DNA of 64,000 nucleotides, taken from positions 44,826,001-44,890,000 of the forward strand of contig OX597828.1 in the NCBI GenBank assembly GCA_951406725.2, given 5' to 3'. How positions within the stretch are numbered: the first letter of the stretch is position 1; each line of letters opens with the position of its first letter. Position numbers and translations under genes: made by a program. Positions 5,911 through 61,909 of this stretch are shown here, piece after piece. The stretch is from Octopus vulgaris. Taxonomy: Eukaryota. The notes under the pieces were generated by a model that searched no databases, was not told the origin of the DNA, and saw nothing but the letters and a program-made list of their open reading frames with translations.

Positions 5911-7329
5911 AATATATATACTAGCAGAGATACCTGGCATTGCTTGTGTTACATGCAATTGAAGAATTAGACTTTTCTGTTATATTTTTTGTAATGAACT
6001 GGAATACCTATGTTTCGAATTTCGTCAAAATTGCAGATGAGGGTTATTTCCCTCTTTACACACCCAAACAAAATTGTAATCGTGCTACATGTATCCCATA
6101 CTACTGATTTTTATGCGCATATTCCAAAATTCCAGTCTTATTGAACCTGTTAAAAGGATTTTGCTCCTGAAAAATGATGGTCATGGAGCTCTAAAAGGTG
6201 AGAATTCAGGCCCCTGTTGGGGGTGGGTGTCTTAATGTCAACCAGAGAAGTTGAATTTTTAACTTGGGTCTTATATCTATTGTTTGAATTTCTTTGAAAT
6301 AGGAAATATATGTTCACTGGGTTTGTAAAAGAGAGCAAAGCTACAGGAAACCAAAAGATGAATGATCACAATAAGCAGTCAGCTACCCTACCCTAGTCAT
6401 TACCACTCCCAATGTAAGATTTCTCCCCATCCAGGTGACAGGCACAGCTGTAAGATGCATTACGAATCTATAGCAATTGGAAGGGCATGATACAACTGAA
6501 ATAAACATTAACAACGGTGTGACATGAGGGTTAAGGAGAAATGAAAGTGTCACATCTGGAGTTTGCAAACGACCACTATACTGATACATAACTGGACAGA
6601 ATAAATTTGCAATCTATAAACGTCTTTGAATAACCATTCACTCATCTGGGAAGGCCTTGAAATCAATGTTACCATCTGGGGACTATGTGTGACCTAGTGA
6701 TAATAAAAAGAGTGAAAGGAGGTCTGCAATCAAATAACTTTACTCAACACTTTGCAGCTGAATCAGTGGAGGCAAAGATGCCTCTCATTTACTTGACAAT
6801 TTATGCACCACATTGCAGAAATCCCAATATAAGTGTATGTCAAAGCAAACTCTTACACTGTTGTACCATTGAATTACAAATAATGCTCATCTTTTATGCT
6901 CGGGTAACCCTACAGCTTCCAAGAGCACAACTGTATTCGTTTTTGCTTAGATACAATGACAAAATTGTGGGTGTTAAGTCCCCATGGAGGGATCTTTCTA
7001 ACATGTAAAAAGATGAAATTTTATAAAAATTACTTCATTTGTGTCTAATATCTATGGTTAAAATTTCATGAACAGGAAAAATCGATGAATTGTCATGGGG
7101 GTTCTGACAATACTGTAATGACGAGGTCGATTTTTAGTAGTTACCCCCCACCAAAAAAAAAAAAGAAAACACATACCGGAAGTTTCTCATCAGATGGCCA
7201 AAATTTCTTGATGAGAAACTGTTTTTCTTTGTTGTAATGTAAATTTTCATTATATCTTTCTTCTATTGATGTATTCCTGCAAGTAGGAAGAAAAGACAAA
7301 GGTCAGCATACATACATACATAAATATAT

Positions 7330-7737: not shown

Positions 7738-7861
7738 ATTAAAGATATATATCCTTTTTTTGTTTGTTTTGTTTTTGTTGCCTTTTTCTGCTTTGCAAAC
7801 TGAGTAAATAAATAAATTAATTAATGAAAAATAAAAATCAAAACAAACAAAATATACTCAC

Positions 7862-8028
7862 GAGTGATTGTTTGAGATATGAATCTGAGAATGAAAGACG
7901 CATGTCTTGTTTGAATTCCTTGTATTATTTGTATCGTCCGCTATGTCTTTACAGTTCAGTTTTGGTGAGATTTCCAATTTGGTAAGTTTTACGCAAATAT
8001 TTCTGGCTGCAGTAAACTTGTCGGACAC
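7862..8028 (-). CDS. Candidate internal coding exon (167 nt) of an unidentified host gene
   Basis: Minus strand: polypyrimidine acceptor cttttttcacttccattttcctattccacAG|GTG and donor TC|GTGAGT; only one of three frames open (VSDKFTAARNICVKLTKLEISPKLNCKDIADDTNNTRNSNKTCVFHSQIHISNNH); unique sequence between repeats. Product not recognised. Confidence 0.6.
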
Positions 8029-16339: not shown

Positions 16340-18071
16340 CACTACCGTCAGAAATTAATTAGCACCCTTGATTTGCTCTTCACTCAAGGTATGTGCTGTC
16401 ACCTAGTGGCCATATCTCGAACTATTGCTTTGTTGCGAGTTCACTGTTGCGCAGAACGATGACGTAACTTTGTTTGCAGAGCGGTTTGAGAGTCTACAGC
16501 CTAATGATGTTGACATAGCAGTGCAACAACAACTTGGAGTGCGGATGCAGACAAATCTTCCTTTGTTTAATAGATATAGGTAGCGCCTCGCAAGGACCGA
16601 AATCACACCGTACTAAGTTTTCTCATCGCGTAAGACATTTTGAACAGCTCGTAGGTTAATTGATTTGTGTATTTGCAAGATTTTTTTCCTCACAAATTCT
16701 CCTACACTCTGCTTTGTGACGTGACTTCTGGTTCACAAAACTTTCTGTTATACATCAAATAAGGTGCGAAATTCTGCTTTCTTTCTTTTTTGTTTAATGA
16801 ATAATAACTCATAGCAGTTTTGTTATAGCATAACATTATTCAAATGAATAGTTTTAATGAAAATAACTGGTTTTTATCGTTCATTCCTAGATGGGCCCAA
16901 GACCTTGCATGACCTTGGAGAGATGGTATGAGGCTCTCTCGTGGCGTGGGAAGCTGTCGGAGGCTGCAATAGCCAGAAAACTTGGTGTAGCCAGGCGCAC
17001 AATTCAGTGCTTATTTAAGAAATACGAGGAAACCGGATCAGCAGCTGACAAAAAGGGTAGGGGACAGAAGAGGCTGACGACCCAGCAGGAGGACCGGATG
17101 CTGATCCAAAAGTCACTGAACAGCCGAAGGGCAACGAGCCGGCAACTGGCGGAGGAGATGCAAAAGGTGACAGGGAAGCAGTTGTCTACAACCACCGTCA
17201 AGACCAGATTACTGGAAGCTGGTCTAAAATCCTGTAGGGCCGCCCGTAAGCCACTCCTTACAGCCCAAAACCGGAAGAGGTAGCTGCTCTGGGCCCGTGC
17301 CCACAAGATATGGACCGTGCAGCAGTGGTGGACAGTGATGTTCACTGACGAGTCACGATTCTGTCTTGTCAGCGACAAGCCTGTCCATATGCGACGCCGC
17401 AGGGGTGAGCGCTTCAATAAAGACTGCATTGCTCCCACCATGAAGCATGGTGGGGGTGGTCTGATGGTGTGGGGGGCATTCAGCTACAGTGGTGTTGGGC
17501 GGCTCTATGCCGTTGAAGGCAACATCAACGCCACAAAGTACGTTGAGATAGTACGGAATGCTGCCCTACCCTCTGTGGGATACCTCTTTGGTGGCGAGGA
17601 GTACGTGTTCCAGCAGGACAACGCGCCTCCCCACACAGCCAAGCTCACAACCAGTTTCTTCAAGGACCATGGGGTGACGGTCATGGACTGGCTTGGCCAG
17701 TCACCTGACCTGAACCCTATTGAGAACCTCTGGAGTCGATTGGGTAGGGATTTGAATGTGCAGCAATACAGGAACTGACATGAGCTGTTTGGGGCACTTC
17801 TTGCTGCATGGAGGGCCATCTCTGCACAGTATCTGCAGGCACTCATAGACAGCATGCCGGCCCGCGTAGCAGCTGCCATTGCTGCCAAAGGAGGAGCAAC
17901 AAGATATTGACTAAATTTCACGATTAATAACAATTATGTGGTATGCTGAGATATGTTTTAATAAATTTTTGATTAAAAACGAGTTCGTTTCTGATAATAA
18001 GTTAATTAAATTAAGAAAATGTAAGAAAATGTAGAAATTTGAGAAGTGCTAATTAACTTCTGACGCAAGTG
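16340..18071 (+). mobile_element. Full-length Tc1-family DNA transposon (1732 bp)
   Basis: TA|cactaccgtcagaaattaattagcac ... gtgctaattaacttctgacgcaagtg|TA (26-bp TIRs, 23/26 identical), TA TSD, internal transposase. Confidence 0.95.
16891..17910 (+). pseudogene. Tc1 DD34E transposase, 339 codons, two in-frame stops (TAG 17281-17283, TGA 17776-17778)
   Basis: HTH (IARKLGVARRTI), GRGQK linker, MFTDESRF, FQQDNAPPH-...-SPDLNPIENLW with 34 residues between D and E, C-terminal SMPARVAAAIAAKGGATRY*; no frameshifts; AATAAA near 17960. Confidence 0.93.
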
Positions 18072-18228: not shown

Positions 18229-18613
18229 GGAGGCGCAATGGCCCAGTGGTTAGGGCAGCGGACTCGCGGTCATAGGATCGCGCTTTCGATTCCCAGACCG
18301 GGCGTTGTGAGTGTTTATTGAGCGAAAACACCTAAAGCTCCACGAGGCTCCGGCAGGGGATGGTGGTGATCCCTGCTGTACTCTTTCACCACAACTTTCT
18401 CTCACTCTTACTTCCTGTTTCTGTTGTACCTGTATTTCAAAGGGCCGGCCTTGTCACTCTCTGTGTCACGCTGAATATCCCCGAGAACTACGTTAAGGGT
18501 ACACGTGTCTGTGGAGTGCTCAGCCACTTACACGTTAATTTCACGAGCAGGCTGTTCCGTTGATTCGGATCAACCGGAACCCTCATCGTCGTAACCGACG
18601 GAGTGCTTCCATC

Positions 18614-18614
<1 letters not shown>
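18229..18614 (+). mobile_element. SINE-C (tRNA-derived), full length, inserted in (TA)n
   Basis: GGAGGCGCAATGGCCCAGTGGTTAGGGC (A box), TTTCGATTCCC (B box), tail ...gtaaccgacggagtgcttccatcc; near-identical to copies at 20600 and 26053. Confidence 0.88.
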
Positions 18615-18654
<40 letters not shown>

Positions 18655-20599: not shown

Positions 20600-20997
20600 T
20601 GGAGGCGCAATGGCCCAGTGGTTAGGGCAGCAGACTCGCGGTTGAAGGATCGCGGTTTCGATTCCCAGACCGGGCGTTGTGAGTGTTTATTCAGCGAAAA
20701 CACCTAAAAAGCTCCACGAGGCTCCGGCAAGGGGTGGTGGTGATCCCTGCTGTACTCTTTCACCACAACTTTCTCTCACTCTTACTTCCTGTTTCTGTTC
20801 TACCTGTATTTCAAAGGGCCGGCCTTGTCACTCTCTGTGTCACGCTGAATATCCCCGAGAACTCACTTAAGGGTACACGTGTCTGTGGAGTGCTCAGCCA
20901 CTTACACGTTAATTTCACGAGCAGGCTGTTCCGTTGATTCGGATCAACCGGAACCCTCGTCGTCGTAACCGACGGAGTGCTTCCAGTCCAGTCCAGT
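20600..20997 (+). mobile_element. SINE-C with 12-bp TSD
   Basis: TSD ggggtatttgtg at 20588-20599 and 20998-21009; (ccagt)n tail. Confidence 0.9.
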
Positions 20998-24829: not shown

Positions 24830-25248
24830 CAGGCACAAGGCCAGCAATTTTGGGGGAGGGGTAAGTTGGTTATACCAACCCCAGTGCTCATCTAGTACTT
24901 ATTCTATTAACCCCGAAAGGATGAAGGGCAAAGTTGACCTTAGCGGGATTTGAACACTGAACGTAAAGACAGACGGCTAAGCATTTTGCTCAGTGTTCTC
25001 ACGATTTTACCAACTCACCAATAATAATTATAACCATTTCAAATTTTGGTACACAGCCAACACTTTTGGGTGACAGGGATAAGTCGATTAGATCAACCCC
25101 AGTGCTCAACTGGTACTTACTTTATCGACCCCCAAAAAGATGAAAGGCAAAGTCAACCTTGGTGGAATTTGAACTCAAAATGTGAAGATAGATGAAAAGC
25201 TGCTAAGCATTTCACCTGGCATGTTAACAGTTCTGCTATCTCACCACC

Positions 25249-25298
<50 letters not shown>

Positions 25299-25410
25299 CC
25301 TTTCTACTATAGGCACAAGACTTGAAATTTGGGGAAAGGGGATAATCGATTACATTGACCCCAGTGTTTCACTAGAACCTAATTTATTGACCCTGAAAGG
25401 ATGGAACTCA
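24830..25410 (-). mobile_element. Cluster of three decayed SINE-B-family copies
   Basis: ccccagtgctca.ctggtactta.tttatcgacccc.aaaggatgaaaggcaaagtc.acct...ggaatttgaactc repeated. Confidence 0.7.
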
Positions 25411-26052
25411 GATCACAGTGATGGGCATGTTATTCTGTTCTGATGGGCATGTTATTCTGCCAGCTCACGGTCTTAATAATATGAAGAATAAGATTAAGAA
25501 TAAGAATAAAAATTTTACTATAATGAGTGTTATGTCCGTCTGTCTGTCTGTTCGTCTGTTCCCTTTTCACGGTCAAACAGCTGGACCAATGGTCCCAATG
25601 TTTTTGAAGGATTATGAAGGAGGTAATCAGGAAGGTTTGAAGCGAAAAAAAAATGTGAAAAAGTATAATTATGTAGTGGATATTGAGTTTTGCATTAATA
25701 AATCGACTTAGATTTTTTAAAATTAAAATTCCAGTGATGAGGATTAACTCTTGATTCCTTCCCCCACCCTACCCCAAGTATAGTTCATGAATTTAGGGGG
25801 TTTAGTTTTGCTATACCATCCCTTTATTTCTCATCGTAGATGGACAGATTCCTAAAGATTCCGCTCACGCATTCGCAGCACACAAGGCACAGGGCCAGAT
25901 TTTAGACTGTGTAGGTGCATTTTTACCCAGTCCAATGCTAACACATGGCCAGTTATACATTGCTACGAGTAGAGCAACAGACTCCAGTAATTTGGAAATT
26001 AGTGTCAACCAAACAGAAAATATCGTCTACAAGAAGGTTTTGTAATTATATT

Positions 26053-26442
26053 GGATGGAAGCACTCCGTCGGTTACGACGACGAGGGTTCCGGTTGATCC
26101 GAATCAACGGAACAGCCTGCTCGTGAAATTAATGTGTAAGTGGCTGAGCACTCCACAGACACGTGTACCCTTAACGTAGTTCTCGGGGATATTCAGCGTG
26201 ACACAGAGAGTGACAAGGCCGGCCCTTTGAAATACAGGTACAACAGAAACAGGAAGTAAGAGTGAGAGAAAGTTGTGGTGAAAGAGTACAGCAGGGATCA
26301 CCACCATCCCCTGCCAGAGCCTCGTGGAGCTTTTAGGTGTTTTCGCTCAATAAACACTCACAACACCCGGTCTGGGAATCGAAACTGCGATCCTATGACC
26401 GCGAGTCCACTGCCCTAACCACTGGGCCATTGCGCCTCCACC
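26053..26442 (-). mobile_element. SINE-C with 12-bp TSD
   Basis: TSD tgtaattatatt at 26041-26052 and 26443-26454. Confidence 0.9.
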
Positions 26443-26538
26443 TGTAATTATATTATTACCAAAAGGAATATGATTCAGAATTTAAATAAGGAAATTTGTG
26501 AACTTTGAATCACAGGAGTGGCTGTGTGGTAAGTAGCT

Positions 26539-27357
26539 ATAGGCGCAGGAGAGGCTATGTTGTAAGTAGCTTGCTTAACAACCACATGGTTCCAGGTTCG
26601 GTCCCACTGCGTAGCACCTTGGGCAAGTGTCTTCTACTATAGCCTCGGGTTGACCAAAGCCTTGTGAGTGGATTTGGTAGACGGAAACTGAAAGAAGCTC
26701 ATTGTATATATATATATGCGTATATATGTGTGTGTTTGTGTGTCAGTGTTTGTCACCCCCCACCCCCGAACATCACTTGATAACCAATGCTTGTATGTTT
26801 ACGTCCCCTTAACTTAACGGTTCAGCAAAAGAGACCGATAGAATAAGTACTAGGCTTACAAACAATAAGTCCTGGGGTTGATTTGCTTGACTAAAGGTGG
26901 TGCTCCAACATGGCCACAGTCAAATGACTGAAACAAGTAAAAGAGTAAGAGTATAAACAAGCATAAAATAGTGGCTTGCTTACCAACCACGTGGTTCCGG
27001 GTTCAGTCCCACTGCGTGGCATCTTGGGCAAGTGTCTTCTGCTATAGCCCCGGGCTGACCAATGCCTTGTGAGTGGATTTTGTAGACGGAAACTGAAAGA
27101 AGCCTGTCGTATATATGTATATATATGTGTGTATGTGTGTGTGTTTGTGTGACTGTGTTTGTCCCCCCTAGCATTGCTTGACAACCGATGCTGGTGTGTT
27201 TGCGTCCCCGTCACTTAGCGGTTCAGCCGGGGAGACTGATGGAATAAGTACTGGGCTTACAAAGAATAAGTCCCGGGGTCGATTTGCTTGACTAAAGGTG
27301 GAGCTCCAGCATGGCCGCAGTCAAATGACTGAAACAAGTAAAAGAGTAAAAGAGTAA
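26539..27357 (+). mobile_element. Two tandem SINE-A copies (26539-26950, ~26975-27357)
   Basis: Consensus matches; a short duplicated head fragment precedes at 26512-26538. Confidence 0.8.
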
Positions 27358-28237
27358 CTAAAATAAAAGTATATATAAATAACAGTTTTTCATAATACTT
27401 TTTACGTAGTGGTCAAAGGAAGGTCTGACTTTGGTTAGGAGTGGTCCACATAACCATTCATGATTCAGAGTCTGGGAGCCTATTTCCTTTCGGGGGTAAA
27501 TCATCATCCCATGTCACTTAGTCACAAACACGTCATATAGCTGCAATAGAATGTTGTATCACCAACAAGAATGTGATTTCTCTGAGACGTCACCCAGTAA
27601 TCTATCAAGTCCATTTATTCATTTCCCAATACATAATGCTGTTATGACTTCCCTCCCTCATTTTATGCCTCCATCGTAGATGAGTAGATTTGCTAGTAAT
27701 AATAATCCTTTCTACTATAAGAACAAGGCCTGAAATTTGTGGGGAGAGGGCCTGTTGTCTAGATCAACCCCAATTCGCAACTGGTACTTAATTCATCAAC
27801 CTCAAAAGGATGGAAGGCAAAGTCAACCTCTGTGGATTTTGAACTCAGAATGGAGCGACATGCAAAATACCGCGAAGCAGTTCATCCAGCGTGCTAACGA
27901 TTCTGCCAGGTCGCTGCTTTTTGCTAGTAATAGTAATTATATTAAAGATGATGATGACGATGATGATAGTTTGAAATTTTGGCTGAAGGGCAGCAATTTT
28001 AAAAGAAGGATTGGTCAATTACACAAATTTTACTGAAGTTGACTTTGCTTTCCAACCTATTGGGGGTTGATAAAATAAGTACCAGTTGAGCACTGGGGTC
28101 GATGTAATCAACTTATCCCCCACCCCTTAGAAATTGTTGGCCTTCTGCCAAATATTGAAATCAATATTTTAAAACAAAACAAACAACTTTAAACTATATA
28201 ATCATCAGACTACAATGGTATAGTCTACACTTGTGAG

Positions 28238-28272
<35 letters not shown>

Positions 28273-28305
28273 TTTTGACAATGACCAACTGACATAAGAC
28301 GAATA

Positions 28306-29002
28306 TTAGGTTGGCAACTAAGTTCCCGCAGTTTTTTTAAATTTTGGAATCTATTTTTTTCAAGAATTCTATTTTTGAATCATTTTGGAACCTATGTTGT
28401 TTTTGTTTTTTCTAGTTAATTTTTGTTAATTTTTATTTATTTTCAGATCATTAAAATGGGATGTCAAGTTAAGAAAAACGAGCATTTGCAACACCTCCTT
28501 CTTTTTGCTTTTAATCAAGGTTCTAGGGATGCAAAAGCTGCTCGCGACATTTGTTCTGTGTATGGAGAGGGTGCCATAGCTGAAAGAACTGCTCGTGATT
28601 GGTATGCCAAGTTCAAAATCGAAAATTGTGACCTCAAAGATGCACCTCGTTCTGGCTGTCCAGTTGAGTTCGATGAAGAGTGATTAAACCAAATTTTGCA
28701 TGAAAATTCTCATCAAACAATGGAACTGGCAGAGAAAATGGAATGCTCCTACACTGCTATAGAGAAGAATCTTCACTCGATGGGAAAGGTTCAGAAGTAT
28801 GGAGCATGGGTTCCGCATGCTTTAAGTGACAACAACAAAAATTAACGAGCCACAATTTCAGCTGGTTTGCTTGCTTGTCACCACTCAACTCATGAACACA
28901 AGCAACAATTTCGTTACCGAATCATTACTGGCAATGAAAAATAGTGCTTGTACATCAATTAGAAGCAATGTAAGGAATGGCTTAGCCCTGGTAAACAAGC
29001 GA
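28306..29002 (+). pseudogene. 5' half of a mariner element with decayed transposase (ATG 28456)
   Basis: TA|ttaggttggcaactaag TIR; AARDICSVYGEGAIAERTARDWYAKFK, DLKDAPRSGCP, WVPHAL, IITGNEK*; stops and frameshift; truncated after EWLSPGKQ. Confidence 0.85.
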
Positions 29003-29054
29003 CACATGGAAATTCCAAGCAACAATGTAACATTCATTTAATTAAAGCAATCTC

Positions 29055-29136
29055 GGCCTGATGATTAGCTAAGTTAAGATCCCTCTTAAGTAAATATTAC
29101 ATCAGAGGATCAGCTAGCTAAGAAACATATGTGACC
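29055..29136 (+). ncRNA. Type I hammerhead motif with long stem II (cleavage triplet decayed)
   Basis: CTGATGA 29058-29064; stem II TTAGCTA/TAGCTAA with inner gatccctct/agaggatc; GAAA 29122-29125; palindrome CATATG; then TG instead of UH. Confidence 0.6.
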
Positions 29137-30346
29137 TGCAATTTACTCATTCCACTTTCTCTCAATTTGAATTGTTATTCACATTTGTGGAAACTCTAGT
29201 TGCTAACCATGAGCTACAAAAGAACTATCAGATTATCGAATTTCCTCATGACTTCGATATGGGAAAAAGTGTATTAATTTTCGATGCCAATTAATAGTTA
29301 TTCTTCCTTGTCATACACTGTCCATTTTATTTTTTTCGTTTTAAACACCTGTCACAGACTGCTTGAAGCTTAGACTTCCTACACTTGTATTCCTGGTTCT
29401 AATCCTTGTATATCGATATGTATGTGTTTGTTATAGTGTTTTTATCCTAGTTCCTCCTCTCAATGCTTCACAACCATTGTTGGTTTGTTTATGGCCCAGC
29501 AACTTAGTAATTCAGCAAAACAGACTGATGGAATAAGTACCAGACTTCAAAATAAAAAAGTACTGGGGTTTCAATTGTTTAACTAACCCCTTCAAGGTTG
29601 TGCCCCAGTATGACCACAGCCCAATGGCTGAAACAAGTATAGAATATATAAAATAAAAAAATTAAATCCTTTGAATTGAGTTTTTTTTCTTTTTTTTTTT
29701 TTTGAGCCTGAATAAAACTTTAAATTTATGCTTAACTAAAGACATAATTAATCATCGTTAGTTTCCACCATATTGGAAAAATAAATTCTATCTAATGAGG
29801 AGACACACATCTGATAGAAATTAACCTTTTCTTCTTTATTTTCTTTCAGTTCTTTTAAAAATTTATTTATTTATTATTTTATTTTTTTGGTTTCTTTCTT
29901 GCCTTTTTCATTACCTTCAATTACTTTTCTTCTGAGCCTTTACATCGTCTCCAGACTTATGTAACGAGGAAACGGCAGATATTTTGCTAACATACACAAA
30001 ACAACACCACCACCAACACCAACAACAACAACACATAAACAAAGAACTGAAAACACAAGTTAACTGACAAACATAAATAAAATCTTTTTTCTTAAAAGAA
30101 AAAAAATTCTTAAGAAGAAGAAGCAAGAACTGCCCTGGTTATTTTGAAACAAAAGTCACTTAAAAATACGTGCTGTGCATTGAAATTGATCCTTTAACAG
30201 AGAAAGACACATAAAAAACATGAGATTTATTTCGAGATAAATGATAAATGCCCGTTTCCAATGATTGAATTTAAAAGTTACTTTTCATAAATAAATAGGA
30301 AGTTGATTTTTATTTATAAATATCTATGTGTATGTATATATGTGTC

Positions 30347-30385
<39 letters not shown>

Positions 30386-30449
30386 ATATATATACACACA
30401 CATATATATATATATATATGTACATATATATACTCACACACCCACACAC

Positions 30450-30480
<31 letters not shown>

Positions 30481-30540
30481 TATATATACATATATATATA
30501 CATATATATACATATATATATACATATATATATGCACATA

Positions 30541-30614
<74 letters not shown>

Positions 30615-31404
30615 CATATATATGTCCATATATATATATATGTATTATATTTTTATTTGTTTGTTTGTTGATTTGTTTTGTTTTGTTTGTTTAGTTAATG
30701 ATATGCAAGCATACAATTTATCATCATCACGTTTATCTATTCATCATCGTTATCATCCTCATCATTGTCGTTGTCCTGGTCGTCGTGGTAATCATCATTA
30801 TTATCATCATCATCATCATCATCATCATTATCACCCACGTGAAGAACACCTACAATCTCCACTACCACTCCCCCACCCTCCCACCCGACATCGCCGTCGT
30901 CGTCGTCGTCTTCATCATAATCATCTACTATAACTGCCACCCACCACCACCACCACCATCACCACTACTACCATCCTCCTCCTTCTCCTCGTCATCGTCA
31001 TCATCATCATCATCATTGTTGTCGTCATCACTATAATCCTCTTCATCATCATCAATAGCAACATGAGGACCATCACCACCACCGCAACCACTACCATCAC
31101 TATGACCATCATCATCATCATCATCGTCATTATCCTTCTCCCCCACATCACTATTATCATCATCATCATCATCACTATCATTGCTTCCTTCTTATTTCTG
31201 TTCTTCCATAGACCTCTCCCCTCCTTCTTCCTGTTTCCCCCCCCCCCACCGCCTTTCTTATTCTGTCCCCTGTATTCTTTCATCTGCTGTATTATTTCTT
31301 CCTTTTTGTATCAGACATTCTTCAGTTTGTGTTCATCTCCTTTATACACCATGCAATCCTTATCTGATTCACTACCACCACCACCACCACCACCACCACC
31401 ACCG

Positions 31405-31435
<31 letters not shown>

Positions 31436-31460
31436 CACCGTCGTCGTCGTCACCATCATC

Positions 31461-31494
<34 letters not shown>

Positions 31495-31721
31495 TCATCA
31501 TCGTCATGTATGTATCAGTGCCAATCCCTCTCATTCTCTCCATCACGTAGCAATAGGTTTTGCTAATTCCACATATTCAAAGATAACTATTGATTAAGGT
31601 AATACTACAAGTGTGTCTATACAGGGAACATCATCAACATCTGAATATTGTGTGTGTGTGTGTGTGTGTGTCTGTCTATGTGTACATACATACATACACA
31701 CACACACACACATATATATAT

Positions 31722-32060
31722 ATAGGCGTAGGAGTGGCTGTGTGGTGAGTAGCTTGCTTACCAGCCACATGGTTCTGGGTTCAGTCCCACTGTGTGGAAC
31801 CTTGGGCAAGTGTCTTCTACTATAGCCTCGGGCTGACCAAAGCCTTGTGAATTGATTTGGTAGACGGAAACTGAAAGAAGCCCGTTGTATGTCTGTGTTT
31901 GTCGCTTGACAACCGATGCTGGTGTGTATACGTCCCCGTAACTTACCAGTTCGGCAAAAAGAGTCCGATAGAATAAGTACTAAGGCTGGGGCCGATTTGC
32001 TTGACTAAAGGCAGTGCTCCAGCATGGCCACAGACAGATGACTGAAACAAGTAAAAGAGT
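31722..32060 (+). mobile_element. SINE-A lacking most of the internal microsatellite
   Basis: Consensus match. Confidence 0.8.
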
Positions 32061-32551
32061 ATATACATACATATATATATATATGTGTGTATGTGTGTGT
32101 GTGTGTGTGTATGTATATATGTATATGTATGTATGTGCATATTTTGTCTTGGTTTAAAGATGTGTTACAGAAAACATTTTGTGGTCAATACCACAGATTT
32201 GCTTGCTAGTTGCTTGACCTTAAACATTTGACCATGTCCCTTGGTGATTAACAATATATGCGTCGCTGATCATTAGCAAGAGTAGTGGGAGAGTATTGTA
32301 ATGATGTGTTGAGAGGAATTCTTTGGAGTTTGAATAATTCACCTCTGCAAACATGGGTGCTTTGGTGATCATTCTTAAACAAACCTTATGCAGGGAACTG
32401 TTGAGCAGGATGGGCTACTTGGCCTGAAGAAAATACTCACTGGACTCCACCTGCAAAGTCATGCACTGTTTATCATGATATGAAATCGCCATGTTGTGCA
32501 CATATGTTTATGATGCATATACCTGGTGTACCCTTATCAGATGGGTAGTCA

Positions 32552-32772
32552 TGGCAGAAACGTTAGCATGCTGGACGAAATGCTTAGTGGTATTTCGTCT
32601 GCCGTTACGTTCTGAGTTCAAATTCCGCCGAGGTCGACTTTGCCTTTCATCCTTTCGGGGTCGATGAATCAAGTACCAGTTACGCACTGGGGTCGATGTA
32701 ATCGACTTAATCCGTTTGTCTGTCCTTGTTAGTCTTCTCTGTGTTTAGCCCCTTGTGGGTAGTAAAGAAATA
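32552..32772 (+). mobile_element. SINE-B (tRNA-like head plus conserved metazoan SINE core-like domain)
   Basis: tggcagaaacgttagc (A box), gagttcaaattc (B box), gcctttcatcctttcggggtcgat..a..aagtacc core, tail ccccttgtgggtagtaaagaaata. Confidence 0.8.
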
Positions 32773-32880
32773 GGTATATTGAGTTTCGTATATTTGTGAG
32801 CCAGTGTCACTTTGATGACATGCATTGCCCTCTCCCTCAATAATGATAATTATTAAATACTACTTAAATAAATGAATCAA

Positions 32881-33440
32881 TATGAGTGGATACCCAAAAG
32901 AAACCAGAATTTTGCAATATTATTTTATTCACTTAGTTTTATCGCCTTCAAAGTATTCTCCATTTGAAGCAATGCATTGGTCCAGATACGTTTTCCACTG
33001 TTCGAAGCAGTGCTGGAACTCTAGGAAAGTGATGCTTTGTAATGCCTCTGTCCTTTTTTTCATCACCTCTTCCACATCTGCAAAATGTCCTTCTTTAAGG
33101 ACTTTTTTCATTTGAGGGAACAAAAAAGATCACAGAACACAAGACTGCGTAAGTAATGAGATTGTATAAGAGGTGGGGGTCATGCATACAATCATGACTG
33201 CTTTTGATCGCCTGTGAGCAAAGGAAGACACAAATTTTGTTGCAACTCTTTTCATTCGCAATTCCTTGCTCGAAATTCGTTGGCAGGAGCTCCAGGACAC
33301 ACCAGTCATATCAACAAGTTCATCAATTGTTCAGTGACAGTCCTCCGGGATCACTTCATGAATTTTCATGATGTTTCCGTTCATTTGGGGAGTTGACAGT
33401 CACCCTGAATGAGATTGGTTCTCAAGCGACAAATGACCAT
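32881..33440 (-). pseudogene. Internally deleted mariner relic
   Basis: C-terminus MKKVLKEGHFADVEEV...FQHCFEQWKTYLDQCIASNGEYFEGD; N-terminal piece VSWSSCQRISSKELRMKRVATKFV; TIR-like tatgagtggatacccaaaagaaacc at 32881. Confidence 0.75.
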
Positions 33441-33599
33441 TTCTAAAAGTTTTATGTGGATCTTTCTCAACGACAGTCTTTAAGTGACTGTCTTCGATGA
33501 CAGATGGGCAACTACTATGCTCACGATCTTCAACGCTCAGGTTCCCACAGCAAAATCGTTTAAACCATTTTCGAGCTGATCTTTGTGGATCTTCAAATG

Positions 33600-34447
33600 T
33601 CTTTTGAAGCCTCCTTTAGATTTTCAGACATTATAGCATTGACAGGTGTGCACTGACAGATAGGCAGAATAATTGGTAGAGGTTTGTTTGTCATGGGTCC
33701 ACAAAAGGGATTTGAGCCCTGCAAAAGAAAGGCTTGGTCTGTCACAAATTGTACACATAAAAACGTGGTTGGCATTCATTTTCTTGCTGATCATAGCATT
33801 TTTCGTTAAATTTCTTTTGAGTTTTGCATGGGTCATCCTGGCTTCTTCAAACACTTTCACTCCATTCCACACTTTTGTTTGCCATGCAGCTTGATCCGAA
33901 GCAGGGGTTTCTATGGCCTTTGGGTTCATTCCAAGTGGCTTCATGTTAGTCCATACACAGTCCTTAACCGCTTCTTTGGTTTATACTGATTGTGTTTCCC
34001 TCAATGATTTCACCATCAAACAACTGCTTGGCTGTGTGTTCATTCAGCATTTAAACAATGTGGCCAGACTATCTTATTTGATTTTTCAAGATCATTGATT
34101 TCGGCGAAGTAATGCCTGCATATGCAAAGACATCTATACCTGGAGTGAAAAAGTCCCAAATAATGTTTAAAATGCAGCAAAGGCATTTTTAATGGAATCG
34201 TTCTAACAATTTGAGAGGTCTTTCATAACAGGCCCATGTTTCAGAGGAATACAACAGGGATGGTAAGGCAAACGATTTCTAAAGGGCCAAATTTTGTGTT
34301 GTTATTTTATGTCACTGGTGTCAAATGTATGACTCCAGACCCCCAAATGCATGGGATGCCTTTTCAATTCCCAGCTGTTATTTCTGTGTTCAGATTTCCA
34401 TCATTTTGTACAGAGATTCTGAGGTAGATGAAAGAGCCAACAACCTC
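33600..34447 (-). pseudogene. RTE-clade LINE ORF 3' fragment with decayed C-terminal zinc-finger-like motif
   Basis: EVVGSFIYL, PSLLYSSETW, RFH*KCL..ILNI.W, ASDQAAWQTKVWNGVKVFEE, CTICDR...GLKS...H. Confidence 0.7.
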
Positions 34448-37597: not shown

Positions 37598-39962
37598 CAG
37601 GTAGCCAAAAGGAAGGCTGGGCAGCAGGTATACATAGCCAAGGGCAAAGCGGAAAAGAAGAAGTTTGCCAATGTCCAGTGACGCAAGGACCAAAGAACCG
37701 AAGTATTTCGGATTGCAAGACAGTGGGTGAGAGAAAACTGTGATGTCACAGGAGAGAAATGTATCCACATGGATGATGGTGCATTTGATTTTAATGATTC
37801 TGGGAAGAAAGAGGCTTGGAGAAACCATTATGAAAGATTGCTGAATGTGGAGAATGAATGGGTGGAGGAGAGCCTGCCAAATGTTGACCCAGTAGAGGGA
37901 CCAGCTATCCGAATAGATAGCTCCTTGGTAGATAAAGCAATTAAGGGTATGAAGTCAGGAAAACCCTCGGCCCATCTGAAATCACTGCTGAGGAGATATC
38001 TGGTGGTGTGGGCTATGGCATTGTAAACCAGGTAGTTCATGATGGAGTCATACCCAATAACTAGCGTAGCAGCACCATATTTAACTGCTACAAGGGTAAA
38101 GGTGAAGCTCTAGATAGAAATAAATACAGGGGTATCAGACCGTTGGATCAGGTGATGAAGGTCATGGAGAGGGTCATAGCCCATCTCATTATGGAGAGAA
38201 TCTGCTTAGGTGAGATGCAGTTCGGTTTTTTGCCAGGTAGAAGCACCACCGATGCTATATTCGTGATTCAACACTGCAGGAGAAATACCTAGCTAAAGAT
38301 AAACCCCTGTACTTAGCTTTTGTGGACTTGGAGAAAGCCTTTGACAGGATCCCCCGATCCCTTATCTGGTGGGCGATGTGGAAAGTGGGGATTGATGAAT
38401 GGTTAATAAAGGCTGTACAGGCCCTATACAGAGAGGCCATTCGTAAGATTAGGATTGGCAATGAGCATAGTGAAGAATTCCATGTAGAAGTAGGAGTCCA
38501 CCAAGGTTCAGCCGTCAGTCAACTTTTATTCATCATAGTTCTCCAGGCAATAGCAGAGGAATTCAAGATGGATTGCTCCTGGGAGCTCCTCTATGCTGAT
38601 GCCCTGGCTCTCATAGCAGAATTATGTGGAAGCAAGGTTTAGTATCAAAAGGCATTAGAGTGATTGTAGCAAAGACCAAAGTTCTAGTAAGTAGGAAGGT
38701 GAACTCATCACAAACCCCCTCACGTAGAAAAGGTGTTGGTAGAAACTCCATAAGATATACCCAGTGTAAGCTATGGACACATAAGAGGTGCAGCAACATC
38801 AAAGGAAGATTAACCAGGAAGATAGCTTTCATGTGCAGTAGATGCACAGGGGCAATAAACACCACAGATGCTCAGAAAACAGATTCCATTACACTCCAGG
38901 GGGAAGAAACTAGAAATAGTTGATAGCTTCTGCTACCTAGGTGACCAAGTTAGTAGTGGGGTGGATGCTCTGAGAGTGTTACCACTAGAATAAGAATAGC
39001 CTGGGAAAAGTTTAGAAAGCTCCTACCCCTACTGGTGACAAAGGGTCTCTCGCTCAGAGTGAAAGGTAGATTGTACGACGCATGTGTGAAAACTGCCATG
39101 CTTCATGGCAGTGAAACATGGGCCATGACTGCGGAAGACATACATAGGCTCGAAATAAATGAAGCTAGCATGATCCGCTGGACATGTAATGACAGTGTGC
39201 ACACATGATGGAGTGTAAGCACCCTGAGAGAAATGTTGGACATAAGAAGCATCGGATGTGGTGTGCAAGAGAGACGTTTGCGCTGGTATGGTCATGTACT
39301 ACAGATGGATGAGGAGAGCTGTGTGGAGAAGTGCCACTCCCAAACAGTTAAAGGAATCTGGGGTGGTGGTAGACCCAGGAAGACATGGAATGAGGTGGTG
39401 AAATAGGACCTTTGAAGGTTGAGCTTCACAGAGGCAATGCCGAAAGACCAAGACCTCTGGAGATATGCTGTGACTGTGAAGACCTGGCAAATAACATGAG
39501 TTCACAGATGTATCCTACACCAGTTTCGCATAACCAGCCCCAGCCCATTCAAGAGTACCTTGGATTGGAGGGCAACCTGCTGTGCTTGAGGAGACCTATT
39601 GAGTCAAGTACATCAACATCAAAATGAAAATCAAATGGAAATTGTAGTTGTGATACCCACGCTGGTGGCACATAAAAAACACCATCTGAACGTGGCTTAT
39701 GCCAGTGCCACCTTGACTAGCTTCTATGCCAGTGGCACGTAAAAAGCACCAAACAATTGTGGCCGTTGCCAGCCTCCTCTGGCCCCTCTGCCAGTGGCAT
39801 GTAAAAAGCATCTACTACACTCCATCTACTACATCTGTAGAAACCGCGCAAAATCAAACTGGAGCCAGGTGCAGCTTTCCAGTTTGCCAGCTCAGGACAA
39901 ACCATCCAACCCATGCCAGCATGGACAACGAATTTTAAAAGATGATGATGTTGATGATGATG
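37596..39962 (+). pseudogene. 5'-truncated RTE-clade LINE: decayed reverse transcriptase ORF plus 3' UTR and (GAT)n tail
   Basis: QFGFLPGRSTTDAI, AFVDLEKAFDRIPR, GVHQGS, ELLYADA, FCYLGD, RLRWYGHV, GRPRKTWNEVV; many stops/frameshifts; 3' UTR has family E motifs. Confidence 0.9.
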
Positions 39963-44487: not shown

Positions 44488-44650
44488 TATGACAGGCTTC
44501 TTTCAGTTTCCGTCTACCAAATCCACTCACAAGGCATTGGTCGGCCCGGGGCTATAGCAGAAGACACTTGCCTAAGATGCCACGCAGTGGAACTGAACCC
44601 GCAACCATGTGGTTGGTTAGCAAGCTACTTGCCACACAGCCACTCCTGCA
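44215..44650 (-). mobile_element. SINE-A, full length
   Basis: Consensus match. Confidence 0.85.
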
Positions 44651-44857
44651 CGGATATATACATATATATCAGAAATATTAAATTTCTAAATATCTCATAG
44701 AGATATGTACGGTGGTGGAGTGATAGAGTGGTTGTATACTGTCAACTTAACGTGGCAGTCCCGTAAAGGGAATCACACTACTGCTGTTTAGCCCTAGGAA
44801 GCATCGACACTTCCTGTCGGCCTTTTATATTTACGAAGGGGAGACAAACACCCCCAA

Positions 44858-44938
44858 CAGCTAGGCCCGCATCTAGAGACATGCATGTTTCTGGGTCTTG
44901 CCCATCATCAGTCTAGAGTAGCAGAGGCCTGCTAGCTG
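44858..44938 (-). ncRNA. Intact-looking type I hammerhead ribozyme
   Basis: Minus: TCTAGA-CTGATGA-TGGG caaga CCCA-GAAA-CATGCATG-TC-TCTAGA (44917-44872); stem I extends via aggcc/ggcct and cagct/agctg; predicted GUC cleavage after 44878. Confidence 0.8.
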
Positions 44939-44976
44939 AAGATATCTGTGTAGACTTCGTAAATATATATATATAT

Positions 44977-45182
44977 GATTGATTGATTGATTGATTCTAG
45001 TTTCAGCTCACGAGCTGTGGCCATGCTGGGGCACCGCCATTTGGTGGTGCTACATGGTTTTACTTCACGAATGCTTTTTAGCAACTGCCATTTGGTGCAT
45101 GAGAGAGTTCGATGCAGCTGCCCTCATCTGCACCGCCTGCCGTGAAGTTGGTTCATCTGGGATACCTGACAAGAAGAGATCC
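44977..45182 (-). mobile_element. 3' end of a LINE (CR1/L2/Jockey-group-like ORF2 C-terminus, 3' UTR and (CAAT)n tail)
   Basis: 45181-45065 reads DLFLSGIPDEPTSRQAVQMRAAASNSLMHQMAVAKKHS*; 3' UTR ggcggtgccccagcatggccacagctcgtgagctgaaac is shared with SINE-A. Confidence 0.7.
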
Positions 45183-45819
45183 ATATATATATTTCAGTGA
45201 AGTTTATTCACTGATCACCAAAATCAGAAATATTAAAAAGGTACATATTGAGCAAAGGTCAGCAATGCTTGTGCAGAGTTTTAGGTCCAATAAGACTTGC
45301 ACGACACCTCATAGACCCTCTCCACTTTATTGACATTATCCAGAGACAAGCCAGAGCAAGATGCCTAGTGACAGTATGAGATGCAGGCTCAGGGAGTGGG
45401 AGTGGGAGTGCCATGATCTCTAGCACAAACCAAAGATTCCCAAAATGTCCAATGCCATTCCCTGCATATCTGGATTCATATCAAAGTGACCTTCTCCTAG
45501 AGACATGCTTCAACAGAAGCTGAGGGCTGCTTCACTCCCAGTGGTCTTTCACACACACACACTCTTGCACACATATACACACATACACACTCTTGCACAA
45601 ATACACACACACACGTGTATATATATGTGTGTTTGCGATATGCTCCTTTCAGCTTTTATCTATCAACTCCACTTGCAAGGATCTGGTTATTCTCTGGCTA
45701 AAGCATAAAACATTTGCACAAGATACTGTGCAGTGGAACTGAACCTAAAACCATGGGATTGGGTGACATACATCTTATCTCCTCAGACACATCATATGCT
45801 TCTTTCTTCTTTTTTTCTC

Positions 45820-54419: not shown

Positions 54420-55480
<1,061 letters not shown>

Positions 55481-58886: not shown

Positions 58887-59031
58887 AAATATTAGGGAAT
58901 AATCATTATCTTTTATTAAACTTTTAATACTTTTGATATATATTTAAAATAATATAAATTAATTAATTTTATGTATTGGCTTAAGTTTTTCATTGTTTGA
59001 TTTGCCTAATAGTGGTTTTATCTCTAAATTA

Positions 59032-59064
<33 letters not shown>

Positions 59065-61568: not shown

Positions 61569-61909
61569 ATATAATATTAATTAGAGACAAAACCACTATT
61601 ATGCAAATCAAACAAAGAAAGACTTAATCCAATACATAAACATTTTTATATAAATTAAATAAAATTAATATATCCACTACGATCGTTTCTTGTCACTTCT
61701 AAGGACATTCATCAGGTGGTTTCAAGACCTTCTATTCAATTGAATAGAAGGTCTTGAAACCACCTGATGAATGTCCTTAGAAGTGACAAGAAACGATCGT
61801 AGTGGATATATTAATTTTATTTAATTTATATAAAATTTTTATGTATTGGATTAAGTCTTTCTTTGTTTGATTTGCATAATAGTGGTTTTGTCTCTAATTA
61901 ATATTATAT
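61569..61909. repeat. Near-perfect spacer-less palindrome, ~170-bp arms, centre 61739/61740
   Basis: ...tctattcaa|ttgaataga...; only about one mismatch and one indel seen; right side continues into an AT-rich terminus to ~61995; flanked by (TA)n. Confidence 0.95.
61760..61805 (+). ncRNA. Minimal type I hammerhead ribozyme (mirror copy on minus strand 61674-61719)
   Basis: CCAC-CTGATGA-a-TGTC cttagaagt GACA-a-GAAA-CGATCG-TA-GTGG. Confidence 0.75.

Follow-up and report, generated by a model that had tools for sequence, protein, structure and literature searches.

A canonical type I hammerhead motif in a high-copy, non-coding repeat of Octopus vulgaris, likely a solo copy of retrozyme type

Repeats with a hammerhead have been found in corals, mussels, flatworms and amphibians, a list that the octopus would join if the locus described here is what it appears to be, and the question is in what capacity: as carrier of a mobile RNA, as remnant of a retrotransposon, or as host of a ribozyme that cuts one of its own transcripts. 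The window, i.e., the whole stretch of 64,000 nucleotides that was analysed (O. vulgaris assembly GCA_951406725.2, contig OX597828.1, positions 44,826,001 to 44,890,000), had been read in an initial annotation as harbouring at 44700-44962 a retrozyme-like element of ~260 bp with an apparently intact, extended type I hammerhead.

The full core has been found on the minus strand as annotated, with CUGAUGA at 44911-44905 (C3-A9), GAAA at 44891-44888 (G12-A15.1) and the GUC triplet at 44880-44878. By standard hammerhead numbering, the cut is predicted between 44878 and 44877, in agreement with the site proposed earlier. Helix I is formed by UCUAGA on both sides (44917-44912 / 44877-44872, 6 bp) and extends, as had been noticed, to cagct/agctg (44938-44934 / 44862-44858), beyond which the strands go on pairing as far as two perfect arms of 13 bp (44826-44838, 44955-44967). 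Helix II likewise consists of the 4 bp UGGG/CCCA that had been described (44904-44901 / 44895-44892, pair probabilities 0.85-0.94) and is capped by loop 2 with the sequence CAAGA. Its closing pair 10.1-11.1 is U-A instead of the usual G-C; a G10.1-C11.1 pair has been called highly conserved in the Discussion of PMC4209133, and is taken here as typical of canonical type I hammerheads, not as obligatory. Helix III is a perfect 10-nt palindrome (44888-44879, minus strand), and the annotated stem III, CATGCATG, does not stand as an ordinary stem: it gives 3 pairs and a 4-nt loop in one molecule and 10 bp between two copies, and is suited to dimers.

The motif thereby shows all parts of the canonical type I definition (CUGANGA, GAAA and UH, three helices, helix I open-ended) together with the canonical dimensions, i.e., a helix I of 6 bp, a helix II of 4 bp and a short helix III with a palindromic loop. 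When both strands of the 64-kb window were scanned for structured type I motifs, a single match was returned, the motif at 44872-44917, and none of 300 dinucleotide shuffles has matched it with a helix I of at least 6, a helix II of at least 4 and a helix III of at least 2 pairs. Rfam has given nothing at gathering score in the whole window, no family at E ≤ 10 in local scans of the motif, hammerhead models included, and solely chance-level or generic hairpin matches in four local scans of the element. The hammerhead motif in the element is real, and it is a complete canonical type I motif.

The segment at 44868-44925 (minus strand) comprises helix I and internal loop 1, in which the 5′ strand ends with UAC (44920-44918), more fully C-U-A-C, and the 3′ strand starts with U (44871) and runs on as U-G-C-G. 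In Schistosoma, internal loop 1 reads U1C2C3A4:G5U6A7C8 and loop 2 CAAAUA, and the contacts are described as being made by IL1.U1, IL1.C8, L2.C1 and the 3′ A of loop 2 (PMC2632901); all four contact positions are present in the octopus motif, as positions in the sequence. As described for S. mansoni Sm-alpha (PMC2632901; PMC6155905), internal loop 1 of the octopus motif faces the apical loop 2, and IL1.U1, the U-A-C loop end and the 5′ C and 3′ A of loop 2 are found in both; unlike Sm-alpha, the octopus motif has a loop 2 of 5 instead of 6 nt, a U-A closing pair in helix II, and a palindromic helix III that is predicted to favour dimers. The fourth base of the 3′ strand (44868) is A in 99% of the family depth, unlike the copy in the window. 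Regarding its anatomy, the hammerhead had thus been rightly recognised as intact, extended and of type I, with loops for tertiary contacts in which all contact positions are present.

The related expectation of a fast monomeric ribozyme is unsupported, because the fold predictions give a misfolded single RNA and assign the active form to the dimer. In the lone RNA fold, the core pairs with the helix III sequence, the active secondary structure has appeared in 19, 26 and 32 of 5000 monomer samples at three RNA lengths, and forcing the active fold on the monomer costs ~3.7 kcal/mol. The unconstrained fold of two copies is a double hammerhead with a common helix III of 10 bp and both cores open (mean unpaired 0.92), in which the A15.1-U16.1 pair reaches an intermolecular probability of 0.85 vs 0.009 within one molecule. 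The dimer has been calculated at -54.3 vs 2 × -21.5 kcal/mol, which places it 11.3 kcal/mol below two monomers, and a lone copy is accordingly modelled as cutting poorly. Since the folding model takes no account of tertiary contacts or their energies, some activity of the monomer is possible. The two states would form a natural pair for seeing how a palindromic helix III restricts cleavage.

The hammerhead belongs to a larger repeat copy of ~300 bp (44668-44967, minus strand, both ends approximate) with 44% GC, which is non-coding; the two internal frames of at least 45 aa that were scanned within it have given no Pfam match. The annotated element has therefore been kept as a retrozyme-sized, non-coding and repeated unit, but its true extent is ~44668-44967 and it consists of two modules. 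No second copy of 44668-44967 and no tandem array of it have been found in the 64-kb window. Module B (44826-44967, minus strand) is predicted to fold into a rod-like hairpin of 142 nt, the tip of which is occupied by the hammerhead. The minus strand of the module reaches an MFE of -58.4 kcal/mol (z -5.7; 0 of 200 shuffles fold as well) vs -46.4 kcal/mol (z -3.2) for the plus strand. The rod is closed by the 13-bp perfect inverted repeat, the right arm of which runs into the TA tract and lies mostly within the masked stretch of the depth analysis described below. A reading of module B as a MITE, which these arms fit and which may hold for them, has been rejected for the module, in which a G-U-rich, strand-biased rod and an intact core point to RNA.

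Module A (44668-44825, plus strand) is structured as well and more abundant than module B, its folding being more pronounced on the plus strand (z -3.1) than on the minus strand (z -1.8). It contains a tRNA-sized multi-stem fold at ~44711-44782, in spite of which it has been rejected as a tRNA or tRNA-derived SINE: ARAGORN has called no tRNA in the module, relaxed mitochondrial settings have produced overlapping and inconsistent calls, and Rfam has shown no match near threshold. The box A and box B consensus patterns in general use fit the module only if a mismatch is allowed, and the T-like loop contains no box B. An attempt to derive its strand from variants has also been discarded; a hand-drawn four-helix fold, in which 4 of 4 paired variants turn Watson-Crick and 7 others fall in loops, was drawn after the variants had been seen and is not counted. 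Unbiased MFE folds do not separate the strands, with 6 variants keeping and 5 breaking the pairing on the plus strand, and 7 keeping and 4 breaking it on the minus strand. The TA-rich flanks noticed earlier have been seen on both sides, on the left at 44655-44668, directly after a SINE-like repeat, and on the right at 44961-44995 as (TA)n followed by (GATT)n. Because the flanks are TA runs, no target duplication is distinguishable, and because TA runs are common in the window, they are weak as evidence for the insertion site.

Parts of this stretch are present in 20 of the 24 sequencing runs listed. For the depth analysis, four of the 24 runs, all of them available as contigs, were mapped on 44650-45300 at 80% likeness; X1 and X14 bear organism label A and X6 and X2 label B, out of the labels A to D. 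None of the listed runs is recorded as RNA, X2 and X14 being RNA by guess, and no conclusion on expression, strand or ends is drawn from these two. Positions 44958-45003 were masked, by which 6 joints and 39 loose ends were dropped. Summed depth over 44672-44957 is high in all four runs and under both labels, and over 44870-44935 it amounts to 75,214-122,415 in X1 and 25,236-34,039 in X6. The individual X1 contigs listed have depths of 26-79, three orders below the summed depth, which suggests about a thousand copies or more, depth being a rough measure and not a copy number. The stretch is highly repeated, as is also seen from dozens of variant contigs, and the single-copy state that the initial annotation had named as speaking against its own reading does not apply.

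The variants have been tabulated per site, and 40 of the 80 rows were examined. Alternative letters at 44868, 44904 and 44910 occur in 59, 47 and 33 different contigs, respectively. Among the variants listed, 11 lie in module B: four fall in parts of the rod that are not core, the 10.1-11.1 pair is disrupted by two, and the remaining five have no pairing partner in the active fold. All four rod variants (44849, 44857, 44868, 44926) keep the minus-strand pairing, by one-sided changes only. U4 is changed to C in 36% (X1) and 24% (X6) of the summed depth, and position 10.1 to C in 36-42% of the depth in these runs, giving C-A and a broken closing pair, so that many copies carry a changed core; no other core position than U4 is altered among the variants listed.

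Regarding the relation of the two modules, the A:B depth ratio has been determined as ~2-3 in X1 and 5 or more in X6, and the X1 depth drops from 322k to 75k across 44826-44935. Many loose ends accumulate at 44816-44824, one of them, from X14, with an A-run near 44824, and the joints listed include at least three between opposite strands, of which two lie at 44824. The loose-end consensus of module A copies continues into letters that by eye resemble the start of module B, and one X14 contig joins 44745 to 44829 via a different middle; because of these two observations, it is probable that in many copies modules A and B move together. Among the 11 joints listed, there is none from the right end back to the left end, a weak result since 44958-45003 is masked and contigs break at repeats, and one X6 contig shows a partial head-to-tail joint from 44760 to 44671. 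To the right of the unit, a short piece at 45191-45237 has a small hairpin and 15 bases in common with the left end of module A. This piece may extend the repeat family upstream, 45223 being joined to 44669 in one X1 contig. Directly after (GATT)n, at 45002-45183, lies a different and far more abundant repeat with a summed depth in the millions (X1, X6).

Taking these features into account, we favour, with moderate confidence, the view that 44668-44967 is a dispersed copy of a high-copy, non-coding octopus repeat, and likely a solo monomer of retrozyme type that would have been mobilised by Penelope-like elements. The motif, the fold predictions, the repetition, the TA flanks and the lack of a coding match were obtained directly at the locus. 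For tandem source copies, cleavage, circles and the mobilising enzyme we infer what the families involved would suggest by analogy. Non-LTR retrozymes have been described as units of 150-450 bp with less than 50% GC (PMC7229834), and the octopus unit, with 300 bp, 44% GC and a type I hammerhead, lies within this range, the many genomic copies of retrozymes being matched by the summed depth. With the metazoan families of this kind (PMC7229834; preprint 10.64898/2026.07.22.740005), it has in common the canonical type I hammerhead, the non-coding unit, thousands of copies and the co-occurrence with Penelope-like elements; its dimer-type helix III resembles axolotl HHR_Amex1 and its weak helix II base HHR_Amex2. 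Canonical metazoan type I hammerheads with a helix I of 6 bp, a helix II of 4 bp and a short palindromic helix III have been characterised as dimer-active tandem repeats (PMC4209133). Penelope-like elements account for 6.83% of the O. vulgaris genome (PMC13282606, supplement), and some Penelope clades prefer TA repeats (PMC8557442).

The retrozyme life cycle has been outlined as transcription, cutting, circularisation and Penelope-like reverse transcription (PMC7229834; preprint 10.64898/2026.07.22.740005). For the octopus repeat one may postulate head-to-tail source copies elsewhere that would be transcribed on the hammerhead strand, in whose RNA adjacent hammerheads would pair via the palindromic helix III and cut after GUC. 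Circularisation of the resulting unit-length RNA by a host ligase may follow, and then its reverse transcription by enzymes of Penelope-like elements and its insertion into TA microsatellites. The copy at 44668-44967 has nothing in cis to pair with and, by itself, should cut poorly according to the fold predictions. The element would thus work like a non-LTR retrozyme, of which it is a putative member. Two consecutive units have been required for an "active" retrozyme (preprint 10.64898/2026.07.22.740005), and since the locus holds a single unit, the copy is not classed as one; according to the same preprint, solo monomers are common in retrozyme families, and cleavage has been observed in only 1 of 9 Xenopus dimers tested.

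Elements of this kind are already known, molluscs included, to which the octopus would be added; a mussel family has been described (PMC7229834; preprint 10.64898/2026.07.22.740005). In the giant squid genome, 235 type I Hammerhead-1 matches are listed (PMC6962438), as a count with no element described, whereas the octopus motif lies below every Rfam threshold. The literature search, covering partial texts, has yielded no description of an octopus hammerhead element, and the published repeat library may hold it under another label. The main text of the 2026 O. vulgaris repeat annotation contains 0 matches for hammerhead, ribozyme or retrozyme (PMC13282606), two short strings from the window are absent from one of its supplement files, and the supplements of PMC7229834 and PMC4209133 may list cephalopod motifs. 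Pattern scans for the hammerhead and for module A in viral, metagenome and prokaryote collections gave 0 matches in six of six, as expected for animal DNA. Circular and double-stranded RNA would be readily supplied by a family with so many copies. Octopus is known for its heavy RNA editing.

The strongest competitor to the retrozyme reading, which we consider unlikely, would see in the copy a 3′ pseudo-LTR that an autonomous Penelope-like retrotransposon has left behind after 5′ truncation, with a hammerhead that would process the precursor RNA. The X1 depth falls from 322k to 75k in the direction of the hammerhead strand's 5′ end, a pattern expected from 5′ truncation, and the TA-repeat flanks, the three opposite-strand joints listed, two of them at 44824, and the presence of other Penelope-style hammerhead relics in the window (61569-61909) agree with such an origin. 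Indeed, the hammerheads of Penelope pseudo-LTRs resemble the octopus motif in being of type I with a palindromic helix III, in their solo dispersed copies, and in their TA-repeat targets and inverted arrangements (PMC4209133; PMC8557442). Those of metazoans, however, have been described as minimal or atypical, with a longer helix II and a short helix I (PMC4209133), whereas the octopus motif is canonical and adjoins no Penelope ORF. Among the 141 of 435 frames scanned, no GIY-YIG match has been found, and the only reverse transcriptase matches lie 6 kb off at 38065-38639.

Several observations speak against the preferred retrozyme reading: no tandem copy in the window, changed cores in many copies, no Rfam hammerhead match, and a module A that is commoner than module B and folds better on the opposite strand, which a composite fits as well. 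Unlike non-LTR retrozymes, which act in tandem, the octopus copy is a single unit in TA repeats; its hammerhead sits on a rod of 142 nt that is closed by perfect 13-bp arms, and its second module folds better on the other strand (compared with the accounts in PMC7229834 and the preprint). In such a composite, a SINE-like module A on the plus strand would have been joined to an independent 142-nt hammerhead hairpin with 13-bp inverted repeats, as the varying A:B depth ratio between runs, the loose ends at 44816-44824, the opposite strand preferences of the two folds and the perfect arms closing module B would suggest. We hold it to be rather improbable, as module A has neither a tRNA call nor an Rfam match, 44745 and 44829 are connected in the X14 contig by a different middle, and the loose-end consensus of module A resembles by eye the start of module B, the break being partly an alignment effect of indels in the copy analysed. 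Speculative and of low probability is also a bipartite, two-stranded mobile RNA family with both polarities functional, in which a tRNA-sized module on one strand would be combined with a dimer-dependent hammerhead atop a 142-nt viroid-like rod on the other, and the RNA circle would be copied from RNA to RNA and then written into TA microsatellites.

A role of the motif as a co-opted intronic ribozyme, cutting the pre-mRNA of a minus-strand host gene, is very improbable, and the cutting of a host pre-mRNA raised by the initial annotation is unsupported. The exon and the strand on which that proposal was built are as it had described them: a predicted O. vulgaris protein (P0002) contains the translated frame 7862-8028 unchanged, and three of its exons map to the minus strand with starts at 17441, 8028 and 7275, so that two exons of a predicted gene share the strand of the motif. 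The model itself begins at 17441, at a distance of 27,437 bases from the cut site. What it gives as first exon is a Tc1 transposase relic read in antisense, which looks like a prediction error; the 5′ end being probably wrong, a longer gene is possible. With P0002 and its O. bimaculoides relative (P0003) as queries, tblastn has found no further host exon in the window, nor has Pfam. Domesticated intronic hammerheads exist in amniotes (PMC6155905). Of such a ribozyme, single or few copies would be expected, but the octopus motif is one of very many, carries private substitutions, e.g., at 44868, where 99% of the depth differs, and is predicted to disfavour the monomer fold. As a dedicated switch, a motif of dimer type that belongs to a high-copy repeat is unconvincing, and the single copy is probably a passenger. 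Least of all would we credit a chance match or a decayed palindrome of other than ribozyme ancestry, a reading to which the missing Rfam match and a hairpin-shaped module favouring helix-like matches lend themselves, and which is already contradicted by 0 of 300 shuffles equalling the motif and by the correctness of all core and four loop-contact positions.

In the region of the predicted gene, the relic at 16891-17778 (plus strand) is a Tc1-type transposase with one in-frame stop (HTH_Tnp_Tc3_2, DDE_3). The segments at 7174-7275 and 7861-8028 (minus strand) can plausibly be read as two exons of an octopus protein that is uncharacterised and lacks any Pfam domain, and one O. bimaculoides relative matches a part of this protein that lies outside the window.

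The window is rich in repeats, with 181 tandem-repeat rows. At 61569-61909, a near-perfect palindrome of 341 bp (98.8%) contains two copies of a second hammerhead-like motif, with cores at 61715 (minus) and 61764 (plus). In this motif helix I has 4 bp, helix II is preceded by an extra base and helix III is palindromic; the two copies are predicted to co-fold into a double hammerhead, and their inverted arrangement is typical of Penelope LTR relics. A shorter copy of this repeat, in which the core is missing, lies at 58935-59049. Two copies of another repeat (54814-55038, minus, and 638-847, plus) have a hammerhead-like start, with a core at 55017, and a similar 3′ end; GAAA is found in neither, and they probably represent an inactive hammerhead-derived family. 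Further relics comprise LINE reverse transcriptase fragments with a weak PHD match (38065-38920), a Mos1-type mariner HTH (28420-28680) and a weak helicase match (25806-26042), which may be a Helitron relic. Three copies of a ~280-bp repeat at 18334-18620, 20707-20985 and 26047-26334 are 97-99% identical and form a young family.
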